DNA of 64,000 nt from a virus (IMGVR_UViG_3300025141_014981:1-64000); one strand, 5' to 3'; positions 22,033 through 50,946 are shown, counted from the stretch's first letter. The notes: a model not told the origin generated them from the letters alone. A program made the numbers and translations.

Positions 22033-22266
22033 TTATATACTAGCTGTTTTTAATTTATTTTTAATTTTTGCAACAGCATTGTGTTGTATTTGACATATAC
22101 GCATCTTGGTCAAATTATACATCGATGCTATTTCTTCAAAAGTTTTTGGTGATGTCGCCGACGCTATTATGGCACAATTAAGATCACAATTTGAATTGAC
22201 CCAATATCTACATGACTTTTTGTCACAAGCAACATCATACTCTTGATACGCTTGAAAGCATTTCAT
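22033..22266 (-). CDS. Stand-alone sigma-70 region 4.2-like HTH protein with Cys-rich N-terminus
   Basis: KTFEEIASMYNLTKMRICQIQHNAVAKIK matches the TLEEI..L.xTxERIRQIE..AL.KL pattern; five Cys upstream. Confidence 0.7.
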   Translation of the reverse strand: MKCFQAYQEYDVACDKKSCRYWVNSNCDLNCAIIASATSPKTFEEIASMYNLTKMRICQIQHNAVAKIKNKLKTASI

Positions 22267-22448
22267 TATTTTTCTATCGTAAGGGTTTCTGTTCTACAAT
22301 CTTTTGCTAATTCACGCAATTGCATAAGCCCTTTTCGTAATCTTAAACCGGCAGATTTGTTACCTTTTACATATGTTTTCGTTGCATCAACTTTAAGCTC
22401 ATTAACCAATTCAACAATTAATTCCCACTTGGTACGCTCTTCATTCAT
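22266..22448 (-). CDS. Histone H1-like protein Hc1 family
   Basis: DATK...KGNKSAGLRLRKGL..LRELAKDCR. Confidence 0.75.
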   Translation of the reverse strand: MNEERTKWELIVELVNELKVDATKTYVKGNKSAGLRLRKGLMQLRELAKDCRTETLTIEK

Positions 22449-22491
22449 ATTTTATGCTCCTTCGCATAATAATAATATTCTATAATCATTA

Positions 22492-23004
22492 TTATGTATA
22501 AATTTTTCTGGTGTATATTTGATGTTGTAGTCGTTTATCACTGGCATTTTTATACTTTTGCCACCCCTTCCATTCATCTTTACTGAGTTCTGGAAATTTT
22601 ATCGTATCACCTTCAATTGTTTCTGGTATATATGTAAGATCAATCAATTGTGCATGCTTAAGAGCCTCTTTATAAATTGAAGCACCACCGATAAACCACG
22701 CATGATCTTTATCATTTATGCCCTTTATTTCTTCATGGAAAAGTAATGCATCTTCTATTGAGCGACTTATACATGCACCATTAAATTTTTTAGAATATTC
22801 TTCACTAGTAATGACAATATTGTATCGCCACTTAAGTGGCTTGCATCCCATTGATTCCCATGTTTTTCTACCCATTATGACTGTGCATCCTAATGTCAAT
22901 CTCTTAAATCTCTTAAGGTCAATGGGGTATGACTCTACCCACGGAAGCTTATTATCTTTCCCAATCACACCATTCTCAGATATTGCTGCTATTATGTTCA
23001 GCAT
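22492..23004 (-). CDS. folA: Dihydrofolate reductase
   Basis: IAAISENGVIGKDNKLPW, DLKRFK.LT, IMGRKTWES, IGGASIY. Confidence 0.95.
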   Translation of the reverse strand: MLNIIAAISENGVIGKDNKLPWVESYPIDLKRFKRLTLGCTVIMGRKTWESMGCKPLKWRYNIVITSEEYSKKFNGACISRSIEDALLFHEEIKGINDKDHAWFIGGASIYKEALKHAQLIDLTYIPETIEGDTIKFPELSKDEWKGWQKYKNASDKRLQHQIYTRKIYT

Positions 23005-23720
23005 GCCAGCTCTTCATATGCATTAATTGTTGCCGGCCATAATTCTTTTGCTATTGTCAATAATGCTTCTGCAACCTTTTGGATTTCCCATTGTGCACCT
23101 TCATGTGTTCTAAGATTGATAAACTTAAGAAGATTGCTCAAGTTTACTGTGCCATAATATTCTGTGTATAAATTCTGTGGGAGAACGCCCCTTGCTTGCT
23201 CTCTACAAACACCAGCAATAATCAATGACTCATAAAGATACAAAGCACCTTGATGAAGTTCTTTCACTGCTTCGGAAGCAGTGTACCCACATGTAGATTC
23301 ATCCCATTGAAATGATACCTTAGGATCAATTAAATCACTTTCATTGCTCGCCTGTCGATTAGTTTCGTGTTGTGTCCTAAATACGTTTGGTTCATAAAAT
23401 CTCATATCAATATCCGTATATCTTCTTGATATTTCGTTATAAGACCATGTTCGATGTCTATGATGTTGTGATCTGATAAATAGTGGGACGATAAATTTAA
23501 ATGTTGCACCACAATGTTCTAATGTTGATGTATGCTTGTGCTCAATTAAGTACTTGATAAGTTTCTTGTCACGCTTTGTTATATCTTGATGCTCAATACC
23601 GAAGCTAACCCTTGCTGCATTGACAACTGTTAGATCGGTACCATAGTGTTGAATTAACTTGACACAGCCAATATCATCACCATAAAGTTTTATTGATCTA
23701 TTTAGATGTTCGTCATTCAT
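22998..23720 (-). CDS. thyX: Flavin-dependent thymidylate synthase
   Basis: NAARVS, HTSTLEH, RHRTWSYNEISRRY, EQARGVLP, AQWEI. Confidence 0.95.
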   Translation of the reverse strand: MNDEHLNRSIKLYGDDIGCVKLIQHYGTDLTVVNAARVSFGIEHQDITKRDKKLIKYLIEHKHTSTLEHCGATFKFIVPLFIRSQHHRHRTWSYNEISRRYTDIDMRFYEPNVFRTQHETNRQASNESDLIDPKVSFQWDESTCGYTASEAVKELHQGALYLYESLIIAGVCREQARGVLPQNLYTEYYGTVNLSNLLKFINLRTHEGAQWEIQKVAEALLTIAKELWPATINAYEELAC

Positions 23721-23920
23721 TATTGTATCTCTAGAATAACGTCGCCACGATTTAATTTTATTATTCTTTTACACTGGTTACTTCTATTATCTCTTGTTCC
23801 AATCCATACTTCATAGCTTTCATCAGTGACAGGATTAATTTCAGGCAATCCTTTAACGTAATTTTTTAATTCTTTAATTGTAATTCCATTGAAATTTTCA
23901 AACATTGCCTTCCTTGTCAA
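23720..23920 (-). CDS. Hypothetical protein
   Basis: TAATG coupling to thyX. Confidence 0.55.
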   Translation of the reverse strand: MTRKAMFENFNGITIKELKNYVKGLPEINPVTDESYEVWIGTRDNRSNQCKRIIKLNRGDVILEIQ

Positions 23921-24278
23921 TTATACTCTTGTTATCATTTGTGAATAGATCCCATGGCGAGATATATAATTTTCCAATTTTGTAATCCGCGTATATGACA
24001 AGTCGCTTTTGCCAGTATATCTTGATATTATCATCTATTGTCCGTAATTCAACATAATAACAAGAATCATTGTCAATTCTATATTTTTCTTCATCAGGTA
24101 TGAAATACGTATCTTCAATTAGATTATCAAATTCAAATTCAATATATGGACCACGTTCACCGACTACAACTCTATCATAGTTTGTTAATACATGTTGTCC
24201 TGAGTTTGTGTATAAGTTGAATTGATTCTTGTCATTTACAAGAGGTATTTGTAAACGCTCTTCATACGATGTTTTCAT
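23898..24278 (-). CDS. Hypothetical phage protein
   Basis: 126-aa ORF, RVVVGERGPYIEF...YADYKIG. Confidence 0.65.
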   Translation of the reverse strand: MKTSYEERLQIPLVNDKNQFNLYTNSGQHVLTNYDRVVVGERGPYIEFEFDNLIEDTYFIPDEEKYRIDNDSCYYVELRTIDDNIKIYWQKRLVIYADYKIGKLYISPWDLFTNDNKSIIDKEGNV

Positions 24279-24526
24279 TAATCTGCTTTTGCTATTATCA
24301 ATGAATCACCTTTGATTTCTTTCGCAGCATCTCGAATAGATTTCATTTGATCTCTATTTTCAAGCTCTAATGCTAAAAGATTGACAATCTCGATAATTTG
24401 CCTTTGTGAAACACCAAACTTCATTATCTCACTAACAATGTTTCTACACTCATCTTTCTCTAAAAGATCTTCTTGTGCTTTAGTTATCAACCCCTTTGGG
24501 ATATCTTTGATAATTTCTTGTGTCAT
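24278..24526 (-). CDS. Hypothetical protein
   Basis: TAATG coupled on both sides. Confidence 0.65.
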   Translation of the reverse strand: MTQEIIKDIPKGLITKAQEDLLEKDECRNIVSEIMKFGVSQRQIIEIVNLLALELENRDQMKSIRDAAKEIKGDSLIIAKAD

Positions 24527-24705
24527 TACTTACTTAATAATTCATCTTTGAATAAGTTATCAAAAAACTCAATCAAAGATTTGACATCAACTTTAACTTC
24601 ATGATTAATCCAAATTTTGTCTTTAGCTTCTTGACCAAATTTTGAATACAAGCTTATTATAGTATTACGAAATGTATGTAATTTTTCTACTTCTGTCGGT
24701 CTCAT
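24526..24705 (-). CDS. Hypothetical 59-aa protein (not in ORF track)
   Basis: MRPTEVEKLHTF...DELLSK; AGGAG RBS; TAATG overlap with the next gene. Confidence 0.6.
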   Translation of the reverse strand: MRPTEVEKLHTFRNTIISLYSKFGQEAKDKIWINHEVKVDVKSLIEFFDNLFKDELLSK

Positions 24706-24714
24706 AGTGTGCTC

Positions 24715-25191
24715 CTAGTGATTTGATTTCCAATATTCAATACTATATTTGAACTCATCATGAATCTTTAACAACTTACCTTCATGATGAGTGCTGACAT
24801 CATCTTTGATTTCATCCTTAGTTAATACTAGAAATGGTGTTATGCTATTATTTTTCCATACTCTATTGTCTATAATATATTTTGCTTCCTCAAATGTGTA
24901 TAATTCACAATTGTAGTCATTCAATATTGTAACAAGTTTTTCTGGTAGAAATATAGATAAATCATCTTTACTTACTATATTTTCAGATTCAGAATCAATA
25001 ATTTCACTTTTACATATTTCATAGACTCTATGTGTTATTCCACAATATGAACATTTTGTCAACTTAGGTATTACGTTTCCATCACCATCTAGCAATGAAA
25101 ATACTATAAACGAAAAAAATGGTGGATTGCTAAGTCTACGGTGTTGTGTTAATATACACCGACATGTTATTATATGCTTTTGTGTATCCAT
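24715..25191 (-). CDS. Hypothetical Cys-containing protein
   Basis: CRC, CSYC..H..C pattern. Confidence 0.65.
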   Translation of the reverse strand: MDTQKHIITCRCILTQHRRLSNPPFFSFIVFSLLDGDGNVIPKLTKCSYCGITHRVYEICKSEIIDSESENIVSKDDLSIFLPEKLVTILNDYNCELYTFEEAKYIIDNRVWKNNSITPFLVLTKDEIKDDVSTHHEGKLLKIHDEFKYSIEYWKSNH

Positions 25192-25194
25192 TTG

Positions 25195-25530
25195 TCAATC
25201 AATATTATTCATTATTTGAGTAAACATATTTATACCACTATTCTTCCAGTAGATATCTTTTAATTCACTATCATCCATTTCTATATTAATGATATAGTTG
25301 AGCCTAATGAAATACTCATTTAGACTTTCTATGATTGACTCTTTATTACACGTTAGCTTCCCATCTTTACATGCAACAGACCAAAGTTTCATTGCGTTTA
25401 AAACAATTTTTGTTCTTGTTGGACAATTGCTAGGGATTTTTGATTCTGATATGTGGTTGATTATATCGATGAATTCATGATTGCCAGAATACGGCAAGTT
25501 TGACTTGGTAATTGCTTGGGTAAGCAACAT
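25195..25530 (-). CDS. Hypothetical protein
   Basis: ORF in tightly packed operon. Confidence 0.55.
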   Translation of the reverse strand: MLLTQAITKSNLPYSGNHEFIDIINHISESKIPSNCPTRTKIVLNAMKLWSVACKDGKLTCNKESIIESLNEYFIRLNYIINIEMDDSELKDIYWKNSGINMFTQIMNNID

Positions 25531-25851
25531 TTATTTGTTATCTCTCGATAAAATACGTTCTCTAATACTTTGAGGTTGTGAAGCTTGTTGCAATTGCTTA
25601 TTTATTAGTGATGCCTTTAATTCTTCACGTTCACTCTTTATAGATTCTTTTATAGAGTTAAAGTCGCTTGCCATATCACGATATACTTTATCTAAAGTTA
25701 TACTCATCCTCTTGGTTATGACACCCATATCTTGCTCAGATACATCGATATTACCTTCAACATTCAAAGCAAGCAATGTACTACCTAATTGTTGCTTTGC
25801 ATATGCAAGTGTTTCATTTAGTTTAGCAAGTAAGTTATTTTCTGCACTCAT
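25531..25851 (-). CDS. Hypothetical helical protein
   Basis: ORF in tightly packed operon. Confidence 0.6.
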   Translation of the reverse strand: MSAENNLLAKLNETLAYAKQQLGSTLLALNVEGNIDVSEQDMGVITKRMSITLDKVYRDMASDFNSIKESIKSEREELKASLINKQLQQASQPQSIRERILSRDNK

Positions 25852-26143
25852 GTATATTTTTCTCCTTTAGTGTTTTAATGTTTTCAACTTCATTCATACA
25901 CTGTTCCATTATTTCTATATCATTTTGTGCACAATATAAAATAAGCTTGAGCATTTTGTTGCTTGGTATGCAATCTACAAACTCTTCCAGTGTCAATGCT
26001 GTGTTTTTTTCGTTGACATTAATGTCTTCTATAGCAACGAAAATTGTTGCTATGATATTTGGTAACCTTTCTTTGATTTTACTAGTTTTTATAAAGTCAT
26101 ATATATCGACTTTGTTATGTGCTGTCATAATCATATTAAACAT
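25835..26143 (-). CDS. Hypothetical protein
   Basis: Overlaps the groEL stop. Confidence 0.55.
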   Translation of the reverse strand: MFNMIMTAHNKVDIYDFIKTSKIKERLPNIIATIFVAIEDINVNEKNTALTLEEFVDCIPSNKMLKLILYCAQNDIEIMEQCMNEVENIKTLKEKNIHECRK

Positions 26144-27749
26144 CTTCGTTATTGATAATAAGTGTATCAGTTGTTAACAACAAGCCAGTTACCGATACAG
26201 CATTCTCTAGTGCACACCTCTCTACTTTGGTTGGGTCTATGATTCCAGCATCATACATATTTACATATTTACCAGTTAACGTGTTAAACCCATCAAAGTT
26301 GTCACGCTTTTGTTTATTTTTAAGTCGTCGCTCTATTTCTTTAGAATTATGACCAGCGTTTCTATTAATCTGTGTAAACGGTGCTTTACATGATTTAATT
26401 ACAAGCTGATGCCCGGCACATAAGCTTTTATCATCTCCTACATCATAATCTTTTTCAGACAAATCATTTGCTATTGTCAATAATGCTAACCCACCACCCT
26501 TCACGATGCCCTCATCTACAGCAGCTTGCGTAGCATTTAATGCATCTTCAATCCTCGCAACTTTCTCTTTCAGTTCAGCTTCGGTAAATGCGCCAACTTT
26601 GATAACTGCTATTCCACCTGATAGTGCGGCAATTCTATATTTAAGGCTTTCAACTTCTCTATCGGCTAGGCCATCTTGATTTAGTTGTTCCTTTAAAAGA
26701 GTGATCCTATTAGACAATGCCTCTTCATTACATGAACCATCTACAACAGTAGTTGTGGATTTTGATACAATTATTCTTCGTGCCGTTCCTAATGCCTCTG
26801 GATCAAAATCAGCCGTGAAGTCTTTATCGATATTATCATCGAAGTATCTTGCACCTGTTATGACAGCAAGATCTTGTAAGATCTTTTCACGTTGCTCTCC
26901 AAATGATGGTGCCCTTACGGCACACACCTTGATTGCCCCACGCATTTTGTTGATGACTAATGCATTAAGTGCTTCACCCTCTATGTCACCAGCGACAATC
27001 AATAGCTCTCTTCCAAGTTTTACAGAGCCTTCTAAAATAGGAACCAACTCAGCCATCTTAGTAAACTTTTTATTTGTCACTAATATAAGCGGCTCTGCAA
27101 ATACAGCTTCTTCCCTTTCAGGATTTGTAATAAAAAAGTGTGATGCATAACCTCTGTCAAAGCGTATACCTTGAACAATTTCTAATCTTGTTTCAAAGTT
27201 ATTTGATTCCTCTATTGTTATAACACCCTCTTTTCCAACCTCACGCATTGCATTTGCTATGACACTGCCAATTACTTTATCATTGTTTGCTGATATAGTG
27301 CCGACATGTTCAACCTCTGTGTAGGAGGATATTTCAGTTGACTGTTCTTGTAATGCTTGAGTTACATCTATTAGTGCCATATCCATGCCACGTTTGAGCA
27401 TTACTGGATCATGACCCTGGTCAATTAATTTGTTTCCATTCATTAATAAGTCATGCGCTAGCACTGTTGCTGTTGTTGTACCATCACCAGCTGTTTCACT
27501 TGTTCTAGTTGCAACCTCTCTAACTAATTGCGCACCTAAGTTTTCAAATTTATCTTCTAAGACAATTGATTCTGCAACTGTTACACCATCCTTTGTGACA
27601 AGTTGACTTTGATCTGATCTTTGTATGACTACATTTCTGCCCTTTGGACCTAAAGTGCTTTTCACTGCTTTTGTTAATTTAGTTGCTCCGCTTAAAAGTT
27701 TGCTTCTTGCATCGTCTTCAAATAATAATTCATTGAAATTATTTATCAT
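26136..27749 (-). CDS. groEL: Chaperonin GroEL
   Basis: [56 protein letters not shown]; no GGM tail. Confidence 0.96.
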
Positions 27750-27805
27750 ATTATACCTTTATATTTATTGTAAATCTAGTCTTTTCATCAGAAATTGTAC
27801 ACGCA

Positions 27806-27985
27806 TTATTTATCATTATTCTTACGTAATTTATTCAAGTCACCAATAATTCCGATAGCTATCAAAGTCATATTCATATATGCTAATATTTTTAATGACT
27901 CTATTTGTAGTTGTTCATGAGCACCTAGTAGAAATATATTAGCAAAGATGCATATAGAATATAAAGCAATCTTTATTCCAAACAT
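27806..27985 (-). CDS. 59-aa protein with two hydrophobic segments (not in ORF track); holin candidate
   Basis: MFGIKIALYSICIFANIFLLG...ILAYMNMTLIAIGIIGDLNKLRKNNDK; directly after the transglycosylase. Confidence 0.45.
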   Translation of the reverse strand: MFGIKIALYSICIFANIFLLGAHEQLQIESLKILAYMNMTLIAIGIIGDLNKLRKNNDK

Positions 27986-28437
27986 TGTTCCATCATATAA
28001 CCAGCATAGGTTTTCTTAAGCCTGTTACTGAAGCGTTTCAATGAGTGTGCCCATTTTTTAGATTTGTTACCACACTCATTTCCAGCATTGTAATGGCAAA
28101 TCCAATCATATCTTCTTTTATAGCGCTTCTTCCACCATGCAGCCATGAAGTTTCCAGCTTCCGCACCTTTTGAATATGATGCGTTCATTTCTTTGCAAGA
28201 GTAGACATGCCACCTTGGAATGACTTGTAGCACACCACATGCTCCAGCTCTTGACACAACATCTCTTCTATGTTTAGATTCATACCATGCAAGTGAAACC
28301 ATTTCAAAGGGATCGTTTCCATATCTTTCAGCATGATATACAATTTGTTGTACACTCTCGTGCACTTGTTCATGTTCTAAATGTGTTATGTTTGTGTTAA
28401 ACAAAAGTGCTGCTGTCAACATTAATGTATCTATCAT
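27973..28437 (-). CDS. Lytic transglycosylase (SLT domain)
   Basis: AWYES, SRAGACGVLQV, HYNAG; hydrophobic N-terminus. Confidence 0.85.
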   Translation of the reverse strand: MIDTLMLTAALLFNTNITHLEHEQVHESVQQIVYHAERYGNDPFEMVSLAWYESKHRRDVVSRAGACGVLQVIPRWHVYSCKEMNASYSKGAEAGNFMAAWWKKRYKRRYDWICHYNAGNECGNKSKKWAHSLKRFSNRLKKTYAGYMMEQCLE

Positions 28438-29426
28438 ATTGTTACTTTGCTTGAGCTAAATGTTACTTTCACAGAATTGTGATCTTTAATCCATTGTTGC
28501 ATTTCTATTATGTTGTTAAATTCAAGTTCTTCATTGTTGACAATTAATTTGTATACACCAACTTCTTCCATGACATCAATCTTATTAATAATCATTTCTG
28601 TGACGCCATTAGCTTTTTGTGCTTTAAGCAATGCATTCCAGTTTAACCAATTGCATTGTCGGGGACGACCGGTCGTTGCACCATATTCACCACCAGCCTC
28701 TCTAATAGTATCAAATATCGAATCGTTTGGTTCAAAATCTTTAGCACCAACATAAGTGTCATATATCTTAGCAAGGCCAAATACATGTCTGATAGATTGT
28801 GGTGGGACACCGGTACTAAATATGCCACCTATAGTTGGTGATGAGCAAGTTACGTAGGGATAGTCACCAAAATTAATATCTAATTCATGACCTTGTGCGC
28901 CCTCAAATAAGATAATATTATCAGGCTTATTAAGAATATCAGTAGTATCAACTAAAAATTCTTTTAATGATGCTATATCTTCAGCACGCTTGCCAGTTCT
29001 TGCAAATTTTGATGTATATGCCGGGCCAACGCCCTTGCGACATGAACCGATTCTTACATCTTTACTATCTTCTGTAATATGATCATCTGTTATTATATGC
29101 GTGTTATACGCAATTTTAATATTTTCATATGCTTCTTTGACGCCGGCTTTTACTAAGTAGTCACCTTCCTCAAAGAAGCCTCTTTCATTTAAGACACAAC
29201 CACCTCCAATTACAGATGTAATATTATGAAAAACACCCACAGGCCAGCTATGTGTTACTAGCTTTTTGCCTTTATGATAAATTGTATGTCCAGCGTTTGG
29301 ACCACCTTGCCAGCGTACCACATAGTCATAATCACTATCTTTAGTAAGGCAATATGTAACCTTGCCTTTTCCACAATCACCGTAGCGCAAGTCTATAACT
29401 ACATCTGCAATAGGAAACTTATTCAT
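28434..29426 (-). CDS. purA: Adenylosuccinate synthetase (short form)
   Basis: YGDCGKGK, QGGPNAGHT, FEGAQG, YPYVT, EYGATTGRPR, NKID. Confidence 0.92.
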   Translation of the reverse strand: MNKFPIADVVIDLRYGDCGKGKVTYCLTKDSDYDYVVRWQGGPNAGHTIYHKGKKLVTHSWPVGVFHNITSVIGGGCVLNERGFFEEGDYLVKAGVKEAYENIKIAYNTHIITDDHITEDSKDVRIGSCRKGVGPAYTSKFARTGKRAEDIASLKEFLVDTTDILNKPDNIILFEGAQGHELDINFGDYPYVTCSSPTIGGIFSTGVPPQSIRHVFGLAKIYDTYVGAKDFEPNDSIFDTIREAGGEYGATTGRPRQCNWLNWNALLKAQKANGVTEMIINKIDVMEEVGVYKLIVNNEELEFNNIIEMQQWIKDHNSVKVTFSSSKVTI

Positions 29427-29444
29427 TACTTCTCCACTCAGTAT

Positions 29445-29948
29445 TTATTGTATTTTATGTTTTGGTGTTAGTTTAAAAAATGCCATATGAACTGTGTTCG
29501 TTTGACCTTCTATTGGTGGGTCTTGTATCTTTGTAAGCACACCCAAGTACTCACTTTTAAACTCTTCTTCTAATTCAAGCTCTTGTGTTCGAAAATATGT
29601 TGCAACTGCAGTTGCTAAGACAACCTCATCATCATTTAACTCTGGACCCCACACAACTAAAAGCATTCTTTCATTTTCAAAACAATTATTAAGTTGAACT
29701 ATCATGTAATGCTTGCCAAAAGCTCTTGCTATAGCTGGTGCATCTGCTGGAGGGCAATTTGCAGACAAATATTCAACTGTGGGAATATTTGATTTTGCTT
29801 CTACTACAATAGCCTCTGTATCTGACGTTGGTTTTGAATGTGCTCTACAGGATACATTTATGCCACAAGATATTGATAGTGCTAATATTGTTAGAATTAC
29901 TAGTTTTTTCATGTCACTCCTAAATTTCATTAAAAAGATACTTATCAA
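29445..29948 (-). CDS. Secreted/lipoprotein (likely start MKKLVIL)
   Basis: MKKLVILTILALSISC signal with lipobox-like end. Confidence 0.6.
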   Translation of the reverse strand: MISIFLMKFRSDMKKLVILTILALSISCGINVSCRAHSKPTSDTEAIVVEAKSNIPTVEYLSANCPPADAPAIARAFGKHYMIVQLNNCFENERMLLVVWGPELNDDEVVLATAVATYFRTQELELEEEFKSEYLGVLTKIQDPPIEGQTNTVHMAFFKLTPKHKIQ

Positions 29949-30972: not shown

Positions 30973-30986
30973 AATATAATCACCTA

Positions 30987-31328
30987 TTACATTTTAACAT
31001 GTATCTTAGATAAAGCACTTAATGATTTACGCATTTCTTTTTTATAATCAGTCTCAATTTCTGAGGCTAATTGTGCACGCATATAACCAATAACTTTTCT
31101 TAATTCAGTTTTAGGTGTTATGCCTTTTACTTTTAATACATGTAATTCTTTGCCCTTCTCTTTAATAGTATTAAGCCAAGAACGAGCTTCTGAGTGTGTC
31201 TTAAATGAGCGTTGTCGATTTTTATTATCTTGAGCTCTGTAATTTCCTCTTGATGTCTTCCAGATTTGCCATGGATAGTGTCGCTCTTTACGTCTGGCTT
31301 CTTTTATAGATTGTCTTGAATTGCTCAT
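30987..31328 (-). CDS. Basic hypothetical protein
   Basis: 113-aa K/R-rich ORF. Confidence 0.55.
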   Translation of the reverse strand: MSNSRQSIKEARRKERHYPWQIWKTSRGNYRAQDNKNRQRSFKTHSEARSWLNTIKEKGKELHVLKVKGITPKTELRKVIGYMRAQLASEIETDYKKEMRKSLSALSKIHVKM

Positions 31329-31345
31329 ATTATATTTATATAGAA

Positions 31346-33500: not shown

Positions 33501-33576
33501 ATAAAAATAAGAGAGACAAAACTCCCTCTCACCTTGCTTCTCTATTATTGTAATGATTTATGTACTGCTTGTACAA

Positions 33577-34405: not shown

Positions 34406-34434
34406 ATTATAATACATAATTGATGTATGTTTCA
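34406..34434 (-). promoter_or_regulatory. TGAAACA-N16-TATAAT promoter upstream of the protease
   Basis: Exact match to the 9-copy motif. Confidence 0.7.
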
Positions 34435-40203: not shown

Positions 40204-40205
40204 TG

Positions 40206-40976: not shown

Positions 40977-41044
40977 TATATATATTACAAATATGCGTGA
41001 TACACAATATAAAATTATAAATAAAAGCGAATGCTTTAAATTAG

Positions 41045-42768: not shown

Positions 42769-42788
42769 GATAATATATATGCTATAAT

Positions 42789-43322
42789 TTAATTGTTGTT
42801 CTTTTTCCTTATTCTTGCTATCTTCTTTTTTACTTTTTTAAGCTTGTCATTAGCAAGTTTTTTACTGAGGTTTCCAATTTTATCGAAGAATGTTATACCA
42901 TTAATGTGATCAATTTCATGTTGTAAGCAAACGGCTAGCAAGTCAGATGCTTCAAATTCAATTTCGTTTTCATCAATATCAAGTGCTTTTATGAATACAC
43001 TTTTGGCGCGCTTCACATTGACAGTAATCTCTGGGAAGGACAAGCATCCTTCTTTGACGATCAGTTCACCATGTGAATCTACTATTTCTGGATTAAACAA
43101 GACATGTAGTGTTGATTCATCAAACATATAACCAACATCGGCGACTACTATTCGCTTTAATATGTTGACTTGATTCGCAGCAAGGCCTATACCCTTGCTT
43201 CTATACATTGTTTCTGACATGTCACTTGCAATAGTGACATTATCTCCTGTTATACTAGTGACTATCTCTGCAGGTGTCACCAATACTTTACTTGGAAATA
43301 GTTCAATTTTTAATTCTGGCAT
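42789..43322 (-). CDS. def: Peptide deformylase
   Basis: GIGLAANQ, EGCLS, QHEIDHING. Confidence 0.96.
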   Translation of the reverse strand: MPELKIELFPSKVLVTPAEIVTSITGDNVTIASDMSETMYRSKGIGLAANQVNILKRIVVADVGYMFDESTLHVLFNPEIVDSHGELIVKEGCLSFPEITVNVKRAKSVFIKALDIDENEIEFEASDLLAVCLQHEIDHINGITFFDKIGNLSKKLANDKLKKVKKKIARIRKKNNN

Positions 43323-43336
43323 ATTAACTTCCCTTA

Positions 43337-43564
43337 TTATGCAAGCTCACTATATGGTATGACATATTTTTCAGCTATTAATGTAAAGTTTTCTCTAAGA
43401 GAACTTTGTGCAATATCACGTGTATATAATATATTTCCTGTAAATAAATTGTCAATAGTAAACATGTATACGTTATCTTTACTCACATTCATTACAACAA
43501 GAATTCTTTCTTTATACGTGTTCTCTTGCCATACTTGACCAATTTTAATTTGCAATTGATTCAC
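43337..43564 (-). CDS. Hypothetical protein
   Basis: IKIGQVW SH3-like start; GTG start. Confidence 0.5.
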   Translation of the reverse strand: MNQLQIKIGQVWQENTYKERILVVMNVSKDNVYMFTIDNLFTGNILYTRDIAQSSLRENFTLIAEKYVIPYSELA

Positions 43565-43609
43565 TACTTGATTGTATTTTACTGTTACTAATATTGAACA
43601 TCATTTATT

Positions 43610-43852
43610 TTATGCTCGTTTTATTTGTTGCTTACAAGACACATATATTATTTGCTTGCAGTAGTTATTACTTTGTGTGTATAGCATAACATCATAAGTG
43701 TCTATAACATGATGTTTATCTGGTATTTCACCATCGCTAGCCCAACAAGCTGGACAATCTTCACAATATACACTATATTCTAAACCATTTAGTTTATATC
43801 TTTGTGCAAAGTATGGTGCAAAGTCATTACCTTTTGGTGGTCTGTCAATCAT
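43610..43852 (-). CDS. Hypothetical protein
   Basis: ATGA overlap. Confidence 0.5.
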   Translation of the reverse strand: MIDRPPKGNDFAPYFAQRYKLNGLEYSVYCEDCPACWASDGEIPDKHHVIDTYDVMLYTQSNNYCKQIIYVSCKQQIKRA

Positions 43853-44604
43853 TCTTCGTTAAACGTTATTTCACCATGTAACCACTTATAGTAATACTGC
43901 TTACACTCTTCTTTATGTTCTTCATACCATTGTTTGTCTTTTGGTGTTTCAAAAAATTCTTCTGGTGTTGTTGGGAGCTCATCCCACCCACCTTCAAGTG
44001 CTATCTCACCATATAAATTTTCTAGCCTTGTTTCAATGATGTCTATCACTTCTGATTTTTCATCAAGAGGTTTATACGTAAATTTTATATCATGATACTT
44101 ACCTGTTAAGTTAGTCAACCAGTGAGATAGTGTTTCATTAATATCACTGGTTGATGATAACTTTCCAATAGCAGGAATATGTAGTGCATTAAATTCTTTA
44201 CTATCTAACAAGTCTTTTATTATACTGCCAACAAAAAATGCTATATCATCATCCAATGTATTCACCTCAATTAAATCTTTAAGGCAGTCAGCTGGACCAA
44301 CTGAATATTGTGGTTCAATGATTAGATCGTAATTATTTTCATTATCGATACAACAGTGAAATTTTATATCATGCCAGTGATCATTATACTGTGATTCATG
44401 ATCATTAAACACTTCCTCTGAGATATCTAGGCAAGGATGCGACGTCCAATAAATAATATTATGACCATTACATAAGTGTGTCAACAATGGAACGAAGACC
44501 TCAATGATATCTTTCTCAGAATCATTGAGGTCATCTCTTTTTTTTGTGTTAATTGCTTGAAGTATTTCTAGTAAGTTAATTTTTGGAAAATCATTTTTGA
44601 TCAT
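43849..44604 (-). CDS. Acidic hypothetical protein
   Basis: 251-aa ORF. Confidence 0.65.
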   Translation of the reverse strand: MIKNDFPKINLLEILQAINTKKRDDLNDSEKDIIEVFVPLLTHLCNGHNIIYWTSHPCLDISEEVFNDHESQYNDHWHDIKFHCCIDNENNYDLIIEPQYSVGPADCLKDLIEVNTLDDDIAFFVGSIIKDLLDSKEFNALHIPAIGKLSSTSDINETLSHWLTNLTGKYHDIKFTYKPLDEKSEVIDIIETRLENLYGEIALEGGWDELPTTPEEFFETPKDKQWYEEHKEECKQYYYKWLHGEITFNEE

Positions 44605-45166
44605 TCAGCTTTTCGTTTTCATCAATATCTGAAAATGTCTCGATAGCAATGGATTCGGCATCAATTTTTCCACCATCTTCAATTTCAAACTCTTCAAGAT
44701 CAAGAATGATTTCTTCATTTACAAAAAATGTGGGTTGTTCTTTATCATTTTTGTTTATAGCACCTGTCAACAATAGCTCTTCAAACTCTTTTGATGATAA
44801 GGAGTTGACATCAATCACATCTTCGACTGATAATTCTTGCTTAATGTCATCAGCATGATGATTTGATCTAATCATTCCGATACCAAAGTGCTTATTAACT
44901 AATTTTATTCTATCCTTAAGGGGTCCAAGCATAGCATGTGTTAACTTCTTCTTATTTTCCCAGCTTTCTTTTACAAAGACTAGTTTTGTGTCTCTCGATA
45001 TCTCATTAAACGAATATGACAAACCATTGAGTTCTTTAAGCTTAAGAGCTTCTTCTTCAACTACACGCACAGCCATATCATATTGAAGCTTAATTGACTT
45101 TTGCTTGTTAAGCCTAAACTTGTTATTTCTAACAATAGTTCTTTCTAAAGTATTTGTATTTGTCAT
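44591..45166 (-). CDS. Hypothetical protein
   Basis: 191-aa ORF with acidic C-terminus. Confidence 0.65.
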   Translation of the reverse strand: MTNTNTLERTIVRNNKFRLNKQKSIKLQYDMAVRVVEEEALKLKELNGLSYSFNEISRDTKLVFVKESWENKKKLTHAMLGPLKDRIKLVNKHFGIGMIRSNHHADDIKQELSVEDVIDVNSLSSKEFEELLLTGAINKNDKEQPTFFVNEEIILDLEEFEIEDGGKIDAESIAIETFSDIDENEKLNDQK

Positions 45167-45183
45167 AGTTATAATTATCTCAT

Positions 45184-45345
45184 TTATATGATAGTAACAT
45201 CATTTATTGAAAATTTACTTGGGCGCCCTCGCCGGCATATTTTCTTTTCTAGATCAACAACAAATGATCCCCATACTGTATCATTTTCAACTTTAGTTAC
45301 TTTGTAAGTTAGTCCCTTTACTTGTATTAATGTTCCTCTATTCAT
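45184..45345 (-). CDS. 53-aa protein with RRGRP motif (not in ORF track)
   Basis: MNRGTLIQVKG...ICRRGRPSKF; AAGGG RBS; immediately downstream of promoter 45363-45391. Confidence 0.6.
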   Translation of the reverse strand: MNRGTLIQVKGLTYKVTKVENDTVWGSFVVDLEKKICRRGRPSKFSINDVTII

Positions 45346-45362
45346 TACTTTCCCTTATTACT

Positions 45363-45391
45363 ATAATAACACCATTGTTATTAATGTTTCA
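45363..45391 (-). promoter_or_regulatory. TGAAACA-N16-TATTAT promoter
   Basis: Motif match, same spacing. Confidence 0.7.
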
Positions 45392-45941
45392 CATTATATG
45401 AATTATAATGTTTTACTACACGTCGTAATACTTCTGCTTCTACTCTAACGTCTTCTAATGCATCATGTGCATTGATCCTTTTTATCCCAAAGTGTTCACA
45501 TACAAAGTCTAATCCATGTGTCCGCTCTTTAGGTAATTCTATATTATTTATGGCGAAATAAGGATATGTAAAGCTCCATAATTCTAGAGCTTTATGTGTG
45601 TTCCCTATACCACTCTGTGTAAACTTTCTTATCACTTCAACATCAAATATATTCCATGATGAAAGTCGTAAGAAATTTAGATCAAATAGTGACTCAAATT
45701 CTTTAAAGACTAAGTTATGATCATATCCAGCTTTGATCAAAAAATTCCTATCAAAGCCATGGACTGCTGCTGCCTTGTCAAACCAGTCATCAGTATAAGG
45801 TTTGATAAGCTTTACATACTCTTCTTTAGTTTCTAATGTATCTTTATCAAGAAGAGCTGCACCAATTTGTAATGGGTTACACACACTAGGGTTATTTGAG
45901 CTCATTTCTAAGTCAACAAGTAATATATCACTATGAAACAT
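45381..45941 (-). CDS. DEDDh 3'-5' exonuclease
   Basis: VDLEMS, QIGA, WNIFD, AHDALED. Confidence 0.88.
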   Translation of the reverse strand: MFHSDILLVDLEMSSNNPSVCNPLQIGAALLDKDTLETKEEYVKLIKPYTDDWFDKAAAVHGFDRNFLIKAGYDHNLVFKEFESLFDLNFLRLSSWNIFDVEVIRKFTQSGIGNTHKALELWSFTYPYFAINNIELPKERTHGLDFVCEHFGIKRINAHDALEDVRVEAEVLRRVVKHYNSYNVKH

Positions 45942-46316
45942 TTAATTACTTTGCTTGCTTGCAAGCTTCTGCTTAGCATGTCTTTGCAAGTGCCCAACTA
46001 CAATTTGCTTGATAGCTTTGAATTGTGCTTCTGTCATATCTGGTATTTTTTCTTGAATATTTAACTTCAATAATTCTTCCATTGAATCTGGTGAATTAAT
46101 AATTGTCTCATCAAGCATTGCTACACTTGCAACATCAACAAGCTTATCAAAGGATACTTCAAGAAGCTGCTCTGCTAAGCCTTCATCCCAATCACATACT
46201 TCAATTAACTCTGTATAATTAGAGAGTAAAAGTGCTTCATCGGCAAAAAAATCATCATCTACTTTAAGTGGTTTTCTTTTTGGGTCGTCCACGTTTTTTC
46301 TTTTTGGGTCGCTCAT
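45942..46316 (-). CDS. Hypothetical protein
   Basis: 124-aa ORF; DPKRK duplicated at the N-terminus. Confidence 0.55.
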   Translation of the reverse strand: MSDPKRKNVDDPKRKPLKVDDDFFADEALLLSNYTELIEVCDWDEGLAEQLLEVSFDKLVDVASVAMLDETIINSPDSMEELLKLNIQEKIPDMTEAQFKAIKQIVVGHLQRHAKQKLASKQSN

Positions 46317-46629
46317 CTTCTTTCTCTTTATCTTGTTTTATACGCTTTTCTATAGCAAGCACTTTTAACCAATCTTCATCATTCTTCATGTCAACTTCTG
46401 CAAATGAACATGATGTACCATAACGCATATAATCAATAGTCAACTTTTCATTATCACCCTCATTGATGACTTTTACAAGTTTACACATTACTATACCACT
46501 TTCATCACGCTTAATAGGTATCAAAAAACGTATACCTAGATCTTTTCTATCTAGATAGCGACCCTCTTTATAAACTTGCCAAAGTTCAACATCTTCTGTC
46601 TGTATAGTTATTATATTTTTTTTAGCCAT
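46264..46629 (-). CDS. Hypothetical protein with C-terminal AT-hook-like motif
   Basis: KKKRGRPKKK. Confidence 0.6.
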   Translation of the reverse strand: MAKKNIITIQTEDVELWQVYKEGRYLDRKDLGIRFLIPIKRDESGIVMCKLVKVINEGDNEKLTIDYMRYGTSCSFAEVDMKNDEDWLKVLAIEKRIKQDKEKEDERPKKKKRGRPKKKTT

Positions 46630-46651
46630 AATGTTCTATGTATGCAGTTCG

Positions 46652-46987
46652 CTATCCATTATTTAATAATTTTTGCAATTGAACCCATATATTTGGTCCA
46701 TCTCCAGATACTATATTGACCATCTTTCGTAACCATTGTGGTGTTTCTGATACTTCTATATATTTTGTTCTTTTTTTACTTATTACCGTATTTGCTTCTC
46801 GCAAACTAGGAATATTAAAGAATTGTGCAGTACCCTTACTGCCATACCCTGGTATTCTACCATATGCAGATTTATATTTGTATGTTTGCTCACTATCTTT
46901 GAATACAAGATAATATTTGTGTGCATTCTTTACACTATTATGACACTCACCATAAAATTTAATTTCGTCTTCTTTTATCTCAGTCAT
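46652..46987 (-). CDS. WGR-domain-like protein
   Basis: HKYY...AYGRI...KK.TKY pattern. Confidence 0.5.
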   Translation of the reverse strand: MTEIKEDEIKFYGECHNSVKNAHKYYLVFKDSEQTYKYKSAYGRIPGYGSKGTAQFFNIPSLREANTVISKKRTKYIEVSETPQWLRKMVNIVSGDGPNIWVQLQKLLNNG

Positions 46988-47597
46988 TATTATAGTGATA
47001 TTTAGATGTTAACCTGTCAGCCGTCGACCACCCCTTATTATATACAAACTTGATAGGGTTGCTAGCTTTGCCTGATGTAACAGCCTTATCTGTGATAAGC
47101 AATTTAATATCTTTCTTTATCAAATTTGGGATGACTGATTTGGTTGTTGGGATAAGTGATATATGTCGTTTGACTTCTTTAGTATTAATTGAATTAAATA
47201 GATCAGCAAATCCTTTTCCTGCAAAGTATTTATGATTCCAAACATGTAAACCATGCTGTTCGGTATCAATAGTACGTAAACCAGGTACAAACATAATTGC
47301 CAGCATATATTGATAATACTTCAATCTAGCATCTGAATTACCGCATATGATTTTATCTACTTTAGAGTTACGTCGTCTCTTACAGATATCTAATTCTATC
47401 GACGCTAAAAGCTTTGCATATTTTGCAAATGTTTTTGACTTTCTATTTTTCCACACGATATTATGTATGTCAAGAATATCTTCTGTACGGAGAGCCATAA
47501 ACCAGAGCGGATTTTTCATAACCCAATTAGGATCTGCTATCTTTGTTGTCTTCAATGTTCTTGCAACAAGAAGTGCGCTATCAATATTAAAGCTCAT
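46980..47597 (-). CDS. Basic hypothetical protein
   Basis: 205-aa ORF after MoxR. Confidence 0.6.
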   Translation of the reverse strand: MSFNIDSALLVARTLKTTKIADPNWVMKNPLWFMALRTEDILDIHNIVWKNRKSKTFAKYAKLLASIELDICKRRRNSKVDKIICGNSDARLKYYQYMLAIMFVPGLRTIDTEQHGLHVWNHKYFAGKGFADLFNSINTKEVKRHISLIPTTKSVIPNLIKKDIKLLITDKAVTSGKASNPIKFVYNKGWSTADRLTSKYHYNND

Positions 47598-47599
47598 AA

Positions 47600-48385
47600 T
47601 TAATCTGTCCAGATATGCTCAATGATTTTATCCATCTTATTGGCAATTGTTTGTTTGTCACCAAAATCAAGACCCTTGATACCGACTTTGCTTTGTTTTA
47701 GATAGGTATCTAATATTCCTAGAGTATTAGGGGGAATTGCATCACCAGCAGCATCTAATACACTAATACCAGCATCATGACATGTTCCCAGGTATTCTAA
47801 TCTACGTGGTGTTACTTTTTCTCTATCTTCCTCTTTAAGATGACTCCACCAATTATAGACAAAATTCGCAGTGTCATCTTCCATCTTGGTTTTCAAGAAG
47901 TCAATACTCGGTGTTGGTGCCAACTCAACATGGACATGAAATCTATCTCTAAGTGCAGGATCTAAATCATCAACTTGATACTCTTCAGTTGGTGGATTGA
48001 TTGCCGCCCAAACCATTCTTAATTTAGGTAGCTTGACACCATTGATTTGTTTAAATTGAATTAATTCAAGAATAGAGTTTCTAACTTTTAGATGTGCTCT
48101 ATTAAGTTCATCAAAGAATAAAAATTCCATGTCAAAGATATCATTTCTTTGAGCAAACTTAAGTCGCCCTGTATCTTTATCAGGATATGGTACACCAACA
48201 AGATCAATATAAGGATCCATTGTTGCTGCACTCCAATAACCTAAGTTAAGCTTTAACTCTTGTGCAATTTCTTGTACCATGTATGTTTTACCAATACCAT
48301 GTGTACCAACAATAATTGCATTAAAGTTGCCCTTTGCTGTCTTGATTAAAAGATTTTTTGTAGCGTCGTAATCTAATCTTTGCAT
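47600..48385 (-). CDS. MoxR-like AAA ATPase
   Basis: GTHGIGKT, DLVGVP, FFDELNRA, AAINPP, LDPALRDRF. Confidence 0.9.
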   Translation of the reverse strand: MQRLDYDATKNLLIKTAKGNFNAIIVGTHGIGKTYMVQEIAQELKLNLGYWSAATMDPYIDLVGVPYPDKDTGRLKFAQRNDIFDMEFLFFDELNRAHLKVRNSILELIQFKQINGVKLPKLRMVWAAINPPTEEYQVDDLDPALRDRFHVHVELAPTPSIDFLKTKMEDDTANFVYNWWSHLKEEDREKVTPRRLEYLGTCHDAGISVLDAAGDAIPPNTLGILDTYLKQSKVGIKGLDFGDKQTIANKMDKIIEHIWTD

Positions 48386-48426
48386 TCTTTACCTAAATTT
48401 GTTAATGAAAACAATCTGTTATATAT

Positions 48427-48455
48427 ATTATATAACATTAATTATTAATGTTTCA
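48427..48455 (-). promoter_or_regulatory. TGAAACA-N16-TATAAT promoter upstream of MoxR
   Basis: Exact motif match. Confidence 0.8.
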
Positions 48456-50135
48456 GACATTGCCAAGAATTTTAGCGAACTTTGTAAAGCCAAAAAATCT
48501 TGCTTTATTCCATTCAATGTCTTTACATGGTGAATTATTCCATGCGTTAATTAACTTGTCAACATCAACGGCACCATCATTTTTCTCATAATAAGGGCAC
48601 CGAATGACGAAGTTCCAATTTTGCGGGTCATTTACTTTATAGCGCCAATATGAGCCACCATCAGTAATTACAACAACCCTATCTGGATCATAATTGCTTT
48701 CTTTGATCCAGTCACAAATTGAGCTAAACTCAGTACCATAACCAACATGGCCATGTTTAATTTCTTTAGTCTTACTATCAAGTGTAACTTCTGCACACCT
48801 ATTTGCAAATGCAACAGTCTTTACATCAAACATATTTCTTGGGATCCCACGATAACAAGCAAAGAATAATTTTTTATCTGCAGCCGATACTGATCCTGAA
48901 ACATCAAGTGCAACAAGGATCTTTAATTGTGGCTCCCCTTCTTCATGAGGAAGCCTGTAAAGTGAATCATAACCCATTAACACTGTTGGTTGTCGGCGCC
49001 ATGTGAACTTTTGTTTTTCTTTTTTTGCTCTACCATCTTCTAAAATGGCGCGCCAATTGGCTCTAACATTAGACAATTTGTCAATGTCAAAGATTGCGCC
49101 GGCACCAACAATATGATCCGCAGTTTGATGAAAGTCAGGTTTGCTCTCTGTCTCGGATCCTGATTCTATTTGTGAATCAGTGTATGAGTCAGTATCAGAG
49201 GTACGAATTTCATCATCTTCTTCTTGTTCTTTACTATCACTGTCACCACTTTCTGCATCTGTTTGATTACCAGCTTTATCATTTAATTTGTCTTTAAACT
49301 CTTTAGATACATTTTTGTCAATCCAATCACTGGCAGCTTCATGATCTACGTTTTTCCAGTTACCATGATCATCAACCATTTCTCCGCCCATGCCATTATG
49401 TGCATTTGGACATGTTGATTCACCACTCTCACCGTCTTGACCACTACTATGTGTGCAACCTTCACCCCCATCACACTCCCCACCCTCACTATCATCATTA
49501 CCTGGTGCTTGGTCCTGCTCTTCGAAACGCTCAAGTGTCCACTTAAACACCTCCCTTAGCGATTTATCAGAGCAATCAATTCCATCACACCCTTTAAGGG
49601 TTCTGCAACCAAGGCCCTTGCAAGCTTTACATTCCTTTCCTTTACATATGTCTAATAAGTCACCACACCCATATCCATTACAATTGTCACAAAAATATTT
49701 TTTACCATAAAACCATGGTCCTTCTGGATAGTTTTCTTCATGTAACCAATCATTAATGATACAATCTGCAGCAACATTGAATGCGCGCCACTTCTCTTTA
49801 TATTCTTCGTTTGACTTTAGTCGTACAAGATGTTCAAGCACCATATGTGAAGTTTCGTGTGCAATTACAAATGCAACCTCTTCATCATTCAGCCTATCAA
49901 AGAAATCTGGATTGAATTTAAATACTGGCTTTACAAGCTTTGGCATAAAACCAACACATGCTGTTGGTATTCTTTTATCCCATTGCACGCTTAATACATT
50001 TACACTTCGTAATGCTAGTACAATTTGTCGATCTGCAAATGTATTCCAGATCTTAACTAAGCGTTGCATGCGTGCATTACGCTCTGCCTTTAATTGTTTT
50101 GCAGTTTTATCTTGTTTCTTAGACATGTTATCCAA
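48453..50135 (-). CDS. DUF2201-type metallopeptidase + VWA domain protein
   Basis: IAHETSH..LEH, NVAADCIIN, DDH..W, LDVSGS MIDAS, GTEF, ITDG. Confidence 0.85.
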   Translation of the reverse strand: MDNMSKKQDKTAKQLKAERNARMQRLVKIWNTFADRQIVLALRSVNVLSVQWDKRIPTACVGFMPKLVKPVFKFNPDFFDRLNDEEVAFVIAHETSHMVLEHLVRLKSNEEYKEKWRAFNVAADCIINDWLHEENYPEGPWFYGKKYFCDNCNGYGCGDLLDICKGKECKACKGLGCRTLKGCDGIDCSDKSLREVFKWTLERFEEQDQAPGNDDSEGGECDGGEGCTHSSGQDGESGESTCPNAHNGMGGEMVDDHGNWKNVDHEAASDWIDKNVSKEFKDKLNDKAGNQTDAESGDSDSKEQEEDDEIRTSDTDSYTDSQIESGSETESKPDFHQTADHIVGAGAIFDIDKLSNVRANWRAILEDGRAKKEKQKFTWRRQPTVLMGYDSLYRLPHEEGEPQLKILVALDVSGSVSAADKKLFFACYRGIPRNMFDVKTVAFANRCAEVTLDSKTKEIKHGHVGYGTEFSSICDWIKESNYDPDRVVVITDGGSYWRYKVNDPQNWNFVIRCPYYEKNDGAVDVDKLINAWNNSPCKDIEWNKARFFGFTKFAKILGNV

Positions 50136-50161
50136 AGTATATAATTCCTCTGTATAGATAA

Positions 50162-50190
50162 ATTATATATTATTTTTAATTCTTGTTTCA
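50162..50190 (-). promoter_or_regulatory. TGAAACA-N16-TATAAT promoter upstream of the VWA peptidase
   Basis: Exact motif match. Confidence 0.8.
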
Positions 50191-50205
50191 GATACAGATA
50201 AAATG

Positions 50206-50946
50206 TTATTTGACTTTATTCTTGATTTGTTCAATATCTTGATCTGTGATTTCAAGATCTTCAATATCTGCTGGGTTGATTCCAAATCGCATATGAACAA
50301 TATTTGCTTCACGCTCTGATAGCTTATTTATAGCTTTTTGTGTTACACTTGTTAGGTCTTTGAATATAACAGTATCTTCTGGCGAAGAAGCCTTTGTGTC
50401 TTCAACAATATCCATGATATCACGACCCTCCGTACCTATAGGCAATTCAAGTGAAATAGTATTTTTTGGCATAGTCATTATCTTATTATAATCACTAATT
50501 GATATATCTATTTCGCCACTCACTTCCTCAGGTGTTGGATCTCTCCCAAGTACAGATCTCAATTTATCAGTAGTCTTAACTATTTTACTTTGTAACAACG
50601 TTGCATACACAGGTCGTCTTATGGTTCTTGACTTATCAGCAATAGCACGAGTAATTCCCTGCCTAATCCACCAAACAACATATGTGCTTAATTTGAAGCC
50701 ATATCTGTAATTGAACTTTTCAATACCACGAATAAGCCCTATAGTACCTTCTTGAATTAAATCATCAAGTGTCAATGAGTTACATTTATACTTTTTTGCA
50801 ACAGATACAACAAGACGAAGATTTGCAGTGATCATTTGCTCTTTTGCTTTTTCATCACCAGCTTCTATTCGTTTTGCTAATTCAACTTCTTGCTTTTTTG
50901 TTAAAAGAGGAACCTTTGAAATTTCTTTAAAGTAATGCTCTAGCAT
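50206..50946 (-). CDS. Sigma-70 family factor with regions 1.2-4.1, lacking 4.2
   Basis: [55 protein letters not shown], then 22 unrelated residues and stop. Confidence 0.92.

Follow-up and report, generated by a model that had tools for sequence, protein, structure and literature searches.

In the known split sigma factors, namely T4 gp55/gp33, SPO1 gp33/34, Bacillus subtilis SigO-RsoA, and Tn916 Sig7-Sig8, domain 2 of the sigma factor is separated from domain 4. T4 gp55 is a minimal region 2-like protein, and gp33 binds the beta-flap, does not bind DNA, and needs the sliding clamp. Here we describe a candidate two-part sigma factor in the first 64 kb (hereafter the window) of the 76,289-bp IMG/VR record IMGVR_UViG_3300025141_014981, which comes from an uncultured marine giant phage. 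Its large part is a 246-amino acid (aa) RpoD-like sigma factor without the helix-turn-helix (HTH) of region 4.2, encoded at window positions 50206..50946 on the - strand. Its small part is a stand-alone 77-aa protein encoded at 22033..22266, also on the - strand, in which a four-Cys module is followed by a sigma-4.2-like HTH. The term split sigma has been used for T4 gp55/gp33 in the preprint on Tn916 (10.64898/2026.10.01.756105) and in PMC2988020. No description of a truncated sigma factor paired with a small four-Cys protein was found in the open-access literature and bioRxiv, and the pair probably represents a split sigma factor of a new kind. Our proposal, to which we give slightly less than an even chance, is that the phage has a two-part sigma factor whose small protein supplies -35 recognition in trans.

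The phage sigma factor lacks a complete region 4

The sigma factor begins at region 1.2, without region 1.1. It matched the Pfam profiles Sigma70_r1_2 (aa 2-32, 54 bits), Sigma70_r2 (aa 38-108, 72 bits), and Sigma70_r3 (aa 120-192, 66 bits), all above the Pfam cut-offs, and the WWIRQ.ITR motif of -10 recognition and melting was present. Only profile positions 1-18 of Sigma70_r4 were matched (aa 205-223, E 0.037). These residues form a remnant of region 4.1 (50278..50334, - strand), in which L209, E213, R220, F221, and G222 are invariant across 13 truncated sigmas. Alignments with solved chains of bacterial SigA/RpoD (44-47% identity) ended before region 4.2, and the protein was assigned to PHROG 351 (E 6e-65). 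Judged by these matches, it is a group 1-like (RpoD/SigA) member of the sigma-70 family minus a complete region 4. Regions 2 and 3 were well modelled by AlphaFold2 (AF2), which placed the 4.1 helix at residues 211-221.

Region 4.1 is followed by an acidic C-terminal tail of 23 residues (aa 224-246; 50209..50277, - strand), which consists of a flexible linker and then a short helix. In the AF2 model, the predicted local distance difference test score (pLDDT) was below 50 at residues 226-232, corresponding to a disordered linker, and a helix was formed by residues 235-244. The tail aligns with the recognition helix of region 4.2 (F.VTRERIRQIE), but has Asp/Glu in place of Arg and has lost the first HTH helix. 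It has the look of a degenerated recognition helix, unable to bind DNA, and may be a docking peptide. Truncated sigmas down to 33% identity retain the tail motif [FYL]x[ILV][TS]-acidic...[IM]K. It is shared by four homologues (P0008-P0011; 82, 57, 51, and 51% identity) that are 246-258 aa long and from which PF04545 is absent as well. In region 3.0, the PVYATLL sequence of the phage sigma aligns with PVHMVET, so that the equivalent of E. coli H455 is Tyr, and an equivalent of E458 was found in none of the 13 truncated sigmas. We take H455 and E458 to be the region 3.0 residues that read an extended -10 element in E. coli.

The missing HTH was not found elsewhere. When the entire 76,289-bp record was scanned in six frames, one r2 piece and two r4 pieces were returned, with no r4 in any frame near the sigma gene. 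The next gene follows the sigma stop codon after only 70 nt, and a promoter lies within this gap. The stop codon is spanned by exact-matching contigs from two independent marine sequencing runs, and the sigma region is contained in marine metagenomes of several studies. A frameshift, read-through, an assembly error, and a pseudogene were considered as origins of the truncation and ruled out by the six-frame scan, the conserved homologues, and the exact contigs over the stop codon. The truncation is therefore not an artefact, because homologues down to 33% identity share it and independent contigs agree. The preliminary description of this DNA had stated that the sigma factor retains regions 1.2, 2, 3, and 4.1 and that no region 4.2 lies in another frame, and both statements stand. 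It had also stated that the protein ends before the 4.2 HTH. The HTH is indeed missing, but the protein has no simple end after region 4.1, as the conserved acidic tail remains.

A small four-Cys protein carries the complementary part of region 4

Residues 40-69 of the 77-aa protein matched positions 20-49 of the Sigma70_r4 profile (PF04545) with 32.7 bits, above the Pfam cut-off of 24.1. The best match among solved structures was region 4 of Thermotoga sigma-A (1tty), over aa 39-71. This agrees with the earlier reading of the open reading frame (ORF) 22033-22266 as the missing 4.2 element with an altered recognition helix, which in this phage has the sequence TKMRICQIQ. Profile positions 1-19, corresponding to the region 4.1 helix, were unmatched in the small protein, where the Cys module and a short helix (aa 32-38) occur instead. 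The r4 pieces of the two proteins are complementary to within one profile position, with positions 1-18 in the sigma factor and 20-49 in the small protein.

The N-terminal Cys module (aa 1-38; 22153..22266, - strand) contains C3, C14, C19, and C31 in the spacing C-x10-C-x4-C-x11-C. The protein of this phage has six Cys residues in total, of which these four are invariant in the family. The module is presumed to bind a metal, either as Zn or as Fe-S. Its match to Pfam DUF1540 had an E value of only 0.049, and structure searches gave no clear fold match for it.

The HTH equivalent to sigma region 4.2 comprises aa 39-71 (22054..22152, - strand), with the recognition helix T53-K-M-R-I-C-Q-I60. In an alignment of 72 sequences, the four Cys residues as well as T53, M55, R56, I57, C58, Q59, and I60 were all invariant. 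Residue 54 is Lys in this phage and Arg in nearly all relatives. In what we take to be the matching E. coli sigma-70 numbering, the helix keeps R584 (K54 here), R586, and Q589, and has Met in place of E585 and Cys in place of R588. E585 and R588 are presumably base-contacting positions, and their replacement would fit an altered -35 word.

The AF2 model of the small protein had a pLDDT of 92.4, with helices at residues 3-10, 32-38, 43-50, and 54-76. The last two helices superposed on sigma region 4 with an rmsd (root-mean-square deviation) of 1.1-1.2 Å over 33-34 residues, although the Foldseek E values were above 1. The superposed structures were 1ku3 and holoenzyme sigmas; VIA-align Z scores did not exceed 3.1, and its many rows included HTHs of sigma and LuxR type.

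A search of viral contigs with the single small protein as query gave no match, and an alignment of seven sequences led to 204 relatives in IMG/VR. A profile search of 1.84 billion representatives returned ~145 clusters of the family at E <= 1e-10. The clusters were 37-162 aa long, except for three long proteins that matched through the HTH part only. Neighbours of the small protein in the ESM Atlas were viral clusters labelled 'Sigma-70 region 4 domain', and by these matches the family is viral. With three family members as tblastn queries, no match was obtained in 50,697 GenBank phage records, and among GenBank phages no cultured representative with the small protein was found.

The small protein accompanies truncated sigma factors

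Sigma70_r2 was searched for in 48 of the records that contain the small protein, and a strong match was obtained in 10 of the 48. Of the 11 contigs that reach 180 kb, 9 were among these 10, as were both records with a completeness of 90% or more, one of which is 293 kb long with terminal repeats. All 10 sigmas end just after ILRLRFG and carry the same type of acidic tail. An 89-kb contig of a marine metagenome-assembled genome, an 82%-identical relative, encodes the small protein (MAG26401.1, CMI47_12700) and a sigma factor (MAG26445.1, CMI47_12920) 44 genes apart. With this contig added, the sigma factor was truncated in 11/11 cases. The small protein was absent from about a dozen viral records with a full-length sigma factor, two of which are large and at least 96% complete; in these records the small-protein profile matched only the sigma's own region 4.2. 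Co-occurrence across related phages, which had been suggested as a check on the pairing, was thus borne out, as every sigma factor found beside the small protein was truncated and the records with full-length sigmas were without it. The sigma and small genes are inherited together.

From the sigma side, ~25 further truncated sigmas were found in IMG/VR. Among the large contigs with a truncated sigma, G056 (92% complete), G057, and G067 hold the small protein. This corresponds to three of six such contigs, compared with 4.5 expected from their completeness (P = 0.15 for three or fewer).

All related phages tested have a gp23-type capsid gene, and therefore the phages with truncated sigmas form one lineage. 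By this gene, they belong to the T4-core 'group 2' jumbo phages. Phages of this group have been reported with sigma factors, but no such split has been described (PMC7824862; PMC13282480). The best GenBank 'phage' sigma matches were full length and host-like in look (MaAM05), and jumbo Vibrio phage 2.275.O likewise encodes a full-length sigma factor.

Promoters of these phages carry a TGnAA box at -35

The window contains seven exact copies of TGAAACA-N16-TATAAT, compared with 0.11 expected, all of them on the - (coding) strand between 34 and 64 kb. The repeated promoters with a canonical -10 and a non-canonical -35 (TGAAACA) were thus as first described. The - strand of the whole record has 11 exact sites of this class and 5 with one mismatch. 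One TGAAACA-N16-TATAAT promoter occupies the 70-nt gap behind the sigma gene (50162..50190, - strand). The nearest promoter upstream of the sigma-containing operon (51784..51812, - strand) has the form TGAAACA-N16-TACAAT, with an extended -10 TGa. The nearest one on the upstream side of the small gene (34406..34434, - strand) is ~12 kb away from it. The remaining sites, all on the - strand, are exact at 48427..48455 and 56638..56666 and, with an extended -10, at 52950..52978, 59973..60001, and 63248..63276. Two others, with at most one mismatch, are at 45363..45391 (TATTAT as the -10) and 57875..57903 (TAAAAT). An extended -10 TGn is present at 6 of the 10 window promoter sites.

The exact word TGAAACA-N16-TATAAT was not enriched in 80 related 20-kb loci, nor in the related phages G020, G022, G056, and G067. 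TGAAACA was therefore dropped as a clade-wide box, because relatives share only a TGnAA core. In G022, a promoter class of the same layout was found (ttcTGTAAAAAA...TGGTATAAT). The box is TGTAA(G/A) in G050, cgTGCAA(A/G) and TGTAAA in G056, and GTGCAA in G063; many truncated-sigma genes are preceded by GTGCAAA, GTGTAA, or TGTAAAA.

Sites of the form TG[ACT]AA-N17-19-TA[TG]AAT were counted on both strands of six truncated-sigma phages and compared with the mean of shuffled sequences. The counts were 12 versus 4.7, 32 versus 9.5, 22 versus 4.0, 26 versus 4.1, 18 versus 6.2, and 17 versus 5.0. These TGnAA-class sites were strongly strand-biased in all six phages, in each of which TTGAC-type sites numbered 0-1. 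The control phage G079 (194 kb, 99% complete), which has a full-length sigma factor and no small protein, contained 43 TTGAC-N17-19-TA[TG]AAT sites compared with 1.3 expected, 36 of the 43 on one strand, and its TGnAA sites were at background (L248-L257). These sites make G079 an unusually dense array of consensus sigma-70 promoters.

A second upstream motif, ATA(C/G)TTA, was observed in G022 (L184-L198), a complete relative of 293 kb. It occurs in the structural part of the genome (~45-265 kb), 20-40 nt before many start codons, and may represent a late-promoter class. The late-promoter element of T4 is TATAAATA.

A proposed two-part sigma factor and its alternatives

Under the proposed mechanism, the 246-aa sigma factor would use regions 2 and 3 to bind the core RNA polymerase of the host and would read a TATAAT-type -10. 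It has lost the -35-reading HTH, and of region 4 only 4.1 and the flexible acidic tail are left. The 77-aa protein is a self-folding, probably metal-stabilised sigma-4.2-like domain, which would replace region 4 on the holoenzyme and read TGnAA (TGAAACA in this phage). The conserved sigma tail may recruit the small protein; candidate contact surfaces are the helix of the acidic tail and the basic KKSC(R/K) knuckle of the small protein. Binding to RNA polymerase, the contact between the two proteins, and the reader of the box are what we infer from the comparisons above. The two-part sigma factor is favoured because of the strict pairing, the exact complementarity of the r4 pieces, the DNA-contact pattern with two invariant changes, and the clade-wide non-TTGACA box. 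The earlier suggestion that -35 recognition is supplied in trans is thus partly supported, by the co-occurrence, the complementary r4 pieces, and the non-TTGACA box; the positions of the two genes and the lack of a fused form, described next, speak against it.

Several observations weigh against a two-part sigma factor. The sigma and small genes are never adjacent, being 28 kb apart in the window and >100 kb apart in G022. A fused protein containing sigma, Cys module, and region 4.2 was not found among the 1.84 billion representatives. The confident AF2 fold of the small protein by itself means that it is not one half of a split domain. The small gene has its own promoter in most relatives, and it stands alone on the opposite strand in 77 of 80 distant loci. 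In the same number of related loci it is abutted by a divergent PIN + PhoH fusion gene, with a gap of ~67 nt (e.g., L004:8613-9902, - strand); the PIN-PhoH gene is absent from the window. The small protein was undetected in the truncated-sigma contigs G050 (87% complete), G059 (71%), and G063 (73%). The PIN-PhoH gene is also missing from all three contigs, and the entire neighbourhood from G059 and G063; the lack of the small gene could therefore reflect incompleteness. G050, which retains the block with the Hc1-type gene that otherwise adjoins the small gene, is the one possible true exception to the pairing.

The same observations fit a different reading, which we regard as unlikely but serious. 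The truncated sigma would act alone and independently of a -35 element, on -10 and extended -10 promoters, and the small protein would be a separate regulator. It could be a region 4 mimic that binds the beta-flap or competes with region 4 of the host sigma-70, in shut-off or appropriation, or else an ordinary activator or repressor with a binding site near -35. A small protein that does not need the sigma's region 4.1 to complete a domain, and that is never fused to it, agrees with this, as does the position of its gene, alone behind its own promoter and divergent from PIN-PhoH, which suggests independent regulation. Extended -10 elements are also frequent, and G050 has TGTAA promoters without a detected small protein. 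However, the region 3.0 residue that reads an extended -10 is missing in the phage sigmas, and something must read the TGnAA box, which is strongly conserved at -35 spacing. Furthermore, the small protein keeps the DNA-contacting Arg/Gln pattern of region 4.2, unlike T4 gp33, and it pairs strictly with truncated sigmas and is absent beside a full-length sigma.

The promoters themselves provide the other points against a two-part sigma factor. The box varies (TGAAAC, TGTAAA, and TGCAAA), though the recognition helix is invariant. A single control phage underlies the correlation between promoter and sigma type, and phylogeny confounds it. The sigma gene, and in many relatives the small gene as well, has TGnAA promoters ahead of it, and therefore something else, the host enzyme, must fire them first. 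Many of them have an extended -10, while the phage sigmas are without an equivalent of E458; host primary sigmas have both H455 and E458. From the extended -10 and the position before both genes, it follows that the host sigma may read TGnAA promoters, at least initially. As a conjecture, a positive feedback loop like that of Tn916 Sig7-Sig8, which drives its own promoter, would be one way to reconcile these self-promoter points with a two-part sigma factor.

Taken further, these points lead to a reading that we consider improbable, in which TGnAA-N17-TATAAT sites are early promoters for the host primary sigma. Both phage proteins would act later on other promoters, together or apart, and their co-occurrence would reflect common descent. 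T4 early promoters have their own -35 flavour. In G022, the TGnAA promoters are concentrated towards the genome ends; the sigma gene is itself driven by such promoters, and their extended -10 suits region 3.0 of the host sigma. Other upstream motifs exist in G022, e.g., ATA(C/G)TTA, and a single lineage, in which every truncated-sigma phage tested has the gp23-type capsid gene, agrees with common descent. On the other hand, a non-TTGACA box with essentially no TTGAC type is common to phages of 35% to 45% GC, and one control with a full-length sigma has 43 TTGAC-type sites. The invariant phage 4.2-like helix with two changed specificity positions is an obvious candidate reader of this box, and a second promoter class with a -35-like element was not found in the upstream regions of G022.

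If the two-part sigma factor is real, -35 recognition would be deliverable as an independent subunit that is separately regulated and possibly redox- or metal-sensitive, and a new -35 specificity would be readable directly from genomes. It would also explain how a widespread group of uncultured giant phages, of marine origin as here, redirects the host RNA polymerase. The compact 4.2 module could find use as an orthogonal part for promoter specificity. Few split sigma factors are known, and each of them has been instructive.

Genomic setting of the two genes

The 76,289-bp record has 34.5% GC and is ~40% complete according to CheckV. Almost all genes of the window are on the - strand. Its auxiliary genes encode sugar epimerases, GroEL, dihydrofolate reductase, an adenylosuccinate-synthetase-like protein, a CCA-adding enzyme, RNA ligase, and a Ro-like protein. 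GroEL is full length (26136-27749, - strand; PHROG 5725, E 2e-153). The adenylosuccinate-synthetase-like gene (28434-29426, - strand) encodes a 330-aa PurZ-like protein that matched PHROG 1211 ('2-aminooxy adenylosuccinate synthetase', E 1e-64) in two stretches; the product could be PurA-like or a member of a modified-base pathway. A 1754-aa ORF (14969-20233, - strand) had no PHROG match at E <= 1e-5.

The small gene is preceded by a gene for a 60-aa Hc1-type histone-like protein (22266..22448, - strand; Pfam Hc1, E 7e-15), whose stop codon overlaps the start of the small gene. Hc1 proteins are the histone H1-like type of chlamydiae and Bacteroidota. An Hc1-like gene adjoins the small gene in 41 related loci (e.g., L004:10280-10465). 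The two genes are co-directional in the window and convergent in most relatives. The conserved block around them also contains genes for 153-aa and 70-aa proteins without assigned function. A GC-rich hairpin followed by a T-run, GAGAGGGAGTTTTGTCTCTCTTATTTTT, is located at ~33501-33560 (- strand), just past the first gene downstream of the 34434 promoter. This hairpin is probably an intrinsic terminator, in which case transcription from that promoter would not reach the small-gene region.

The start of the sigma gene is overlapped by a SLOG/DprA-like gene (50927-51439, - strand) that is co-transcribed with it. The 170-aa product belongs to PHROG 289 and has weak matches to Pfam DNA_processg_A, YpsA, and LDcluster4. 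Immediately behind the sigma gene (47600-50135, - strand) come the genes for a MoxR-type ATPase (47600-48385) and, upstream of the ATPase, a 560-aa protein. The latter is metallopeptidase-like (DUF2201_N) with an added VWA domain, and contains a long Cys/Gly/Asp-rich insert, CDNCNGYGCGDLLDICKGKECKACKGLGC.

Comparison with known systems

As with T4 gp55 and gp33, the sigma function in these phages would be distributed over two phage polypeptides that act on the host core, one for the -10 element and melting and the other in place of region 4. The likeness to T4 extends to the T4-type (gp23) capsid gene that the phages also carry. In contrast to gp55, the large part is nearly complete and RpoD-like, with regions 1.2, 2, 3, and 4.1. 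Unlike gp33, the small part keeps the DNA-reading residues of region 4.2 and adds a four-Cys module.

In the AsiA/MotA system of T4, a separate phage DNA-binding protein likewise replaces -35 reading by region 4, often with an extended -10. The MotA box, TGCTTtA, lies at about -30 to -35, and MotA docks on the C-terminal tail of sigma. The TGCAAA, TGTAAA, and TGAAAC boxes and the conserved sigma tail described here bear a formal resemblance to this arrangement. However, AsiA/MotA acts on the host sigma-70 and has unrelated folds, whereas here the phage's own sigma is already without region 4.2, and the candidate reader is itself a 4.2 homologue.

The WhiB-like (Wbl) proteins found in actinobacteria and actinophages are alike in theme only: they too are small, have four Cys residues, and work at the beta-flap and sigma region 4. 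The top Foldseek row for the small protein was a chimera entry of WhiB6 and sigma-A region 4, in which the match was on the sigma-A region 4 chain and not on WhiB. The Cys spacing of Wbl proteins differs from C-x10-C-x4-C-x11-C, and they lack a sigma-4.2 HTH.

The Bacillus subtilis SigO-RsoA and Tn916 Sig7-Sig8 pairs share with the present pair that two proteins would jointly provide sigma regions 2 and 4, with recognition of the -10 and -35 elements. Both are ECF (extracytoplasmic function)-like sigmas that are split between domains 2 and 4 and encoded by adjacent genes. Here, in contrast, a group 1-like sigma is broken between regions 4.1 and 4.2, tens of kilobases separate the two genes, and a Cys4 module is part of the small protein. 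A third split-sigma architecture might be used throughout a large clade of uncultured T4-core jumbo phages, marine as here, a generalisation that we find doubtful. In this architecture a primary-like sigma factor would be cut inside domain 4, a free, metal-stabilised 4.2 mini-protein, re-tuned by E585M and R588C, would guide the host RNA polymerase to the clade's TGnAA box, and the acidic tail of the sigma factor would act as a tether.

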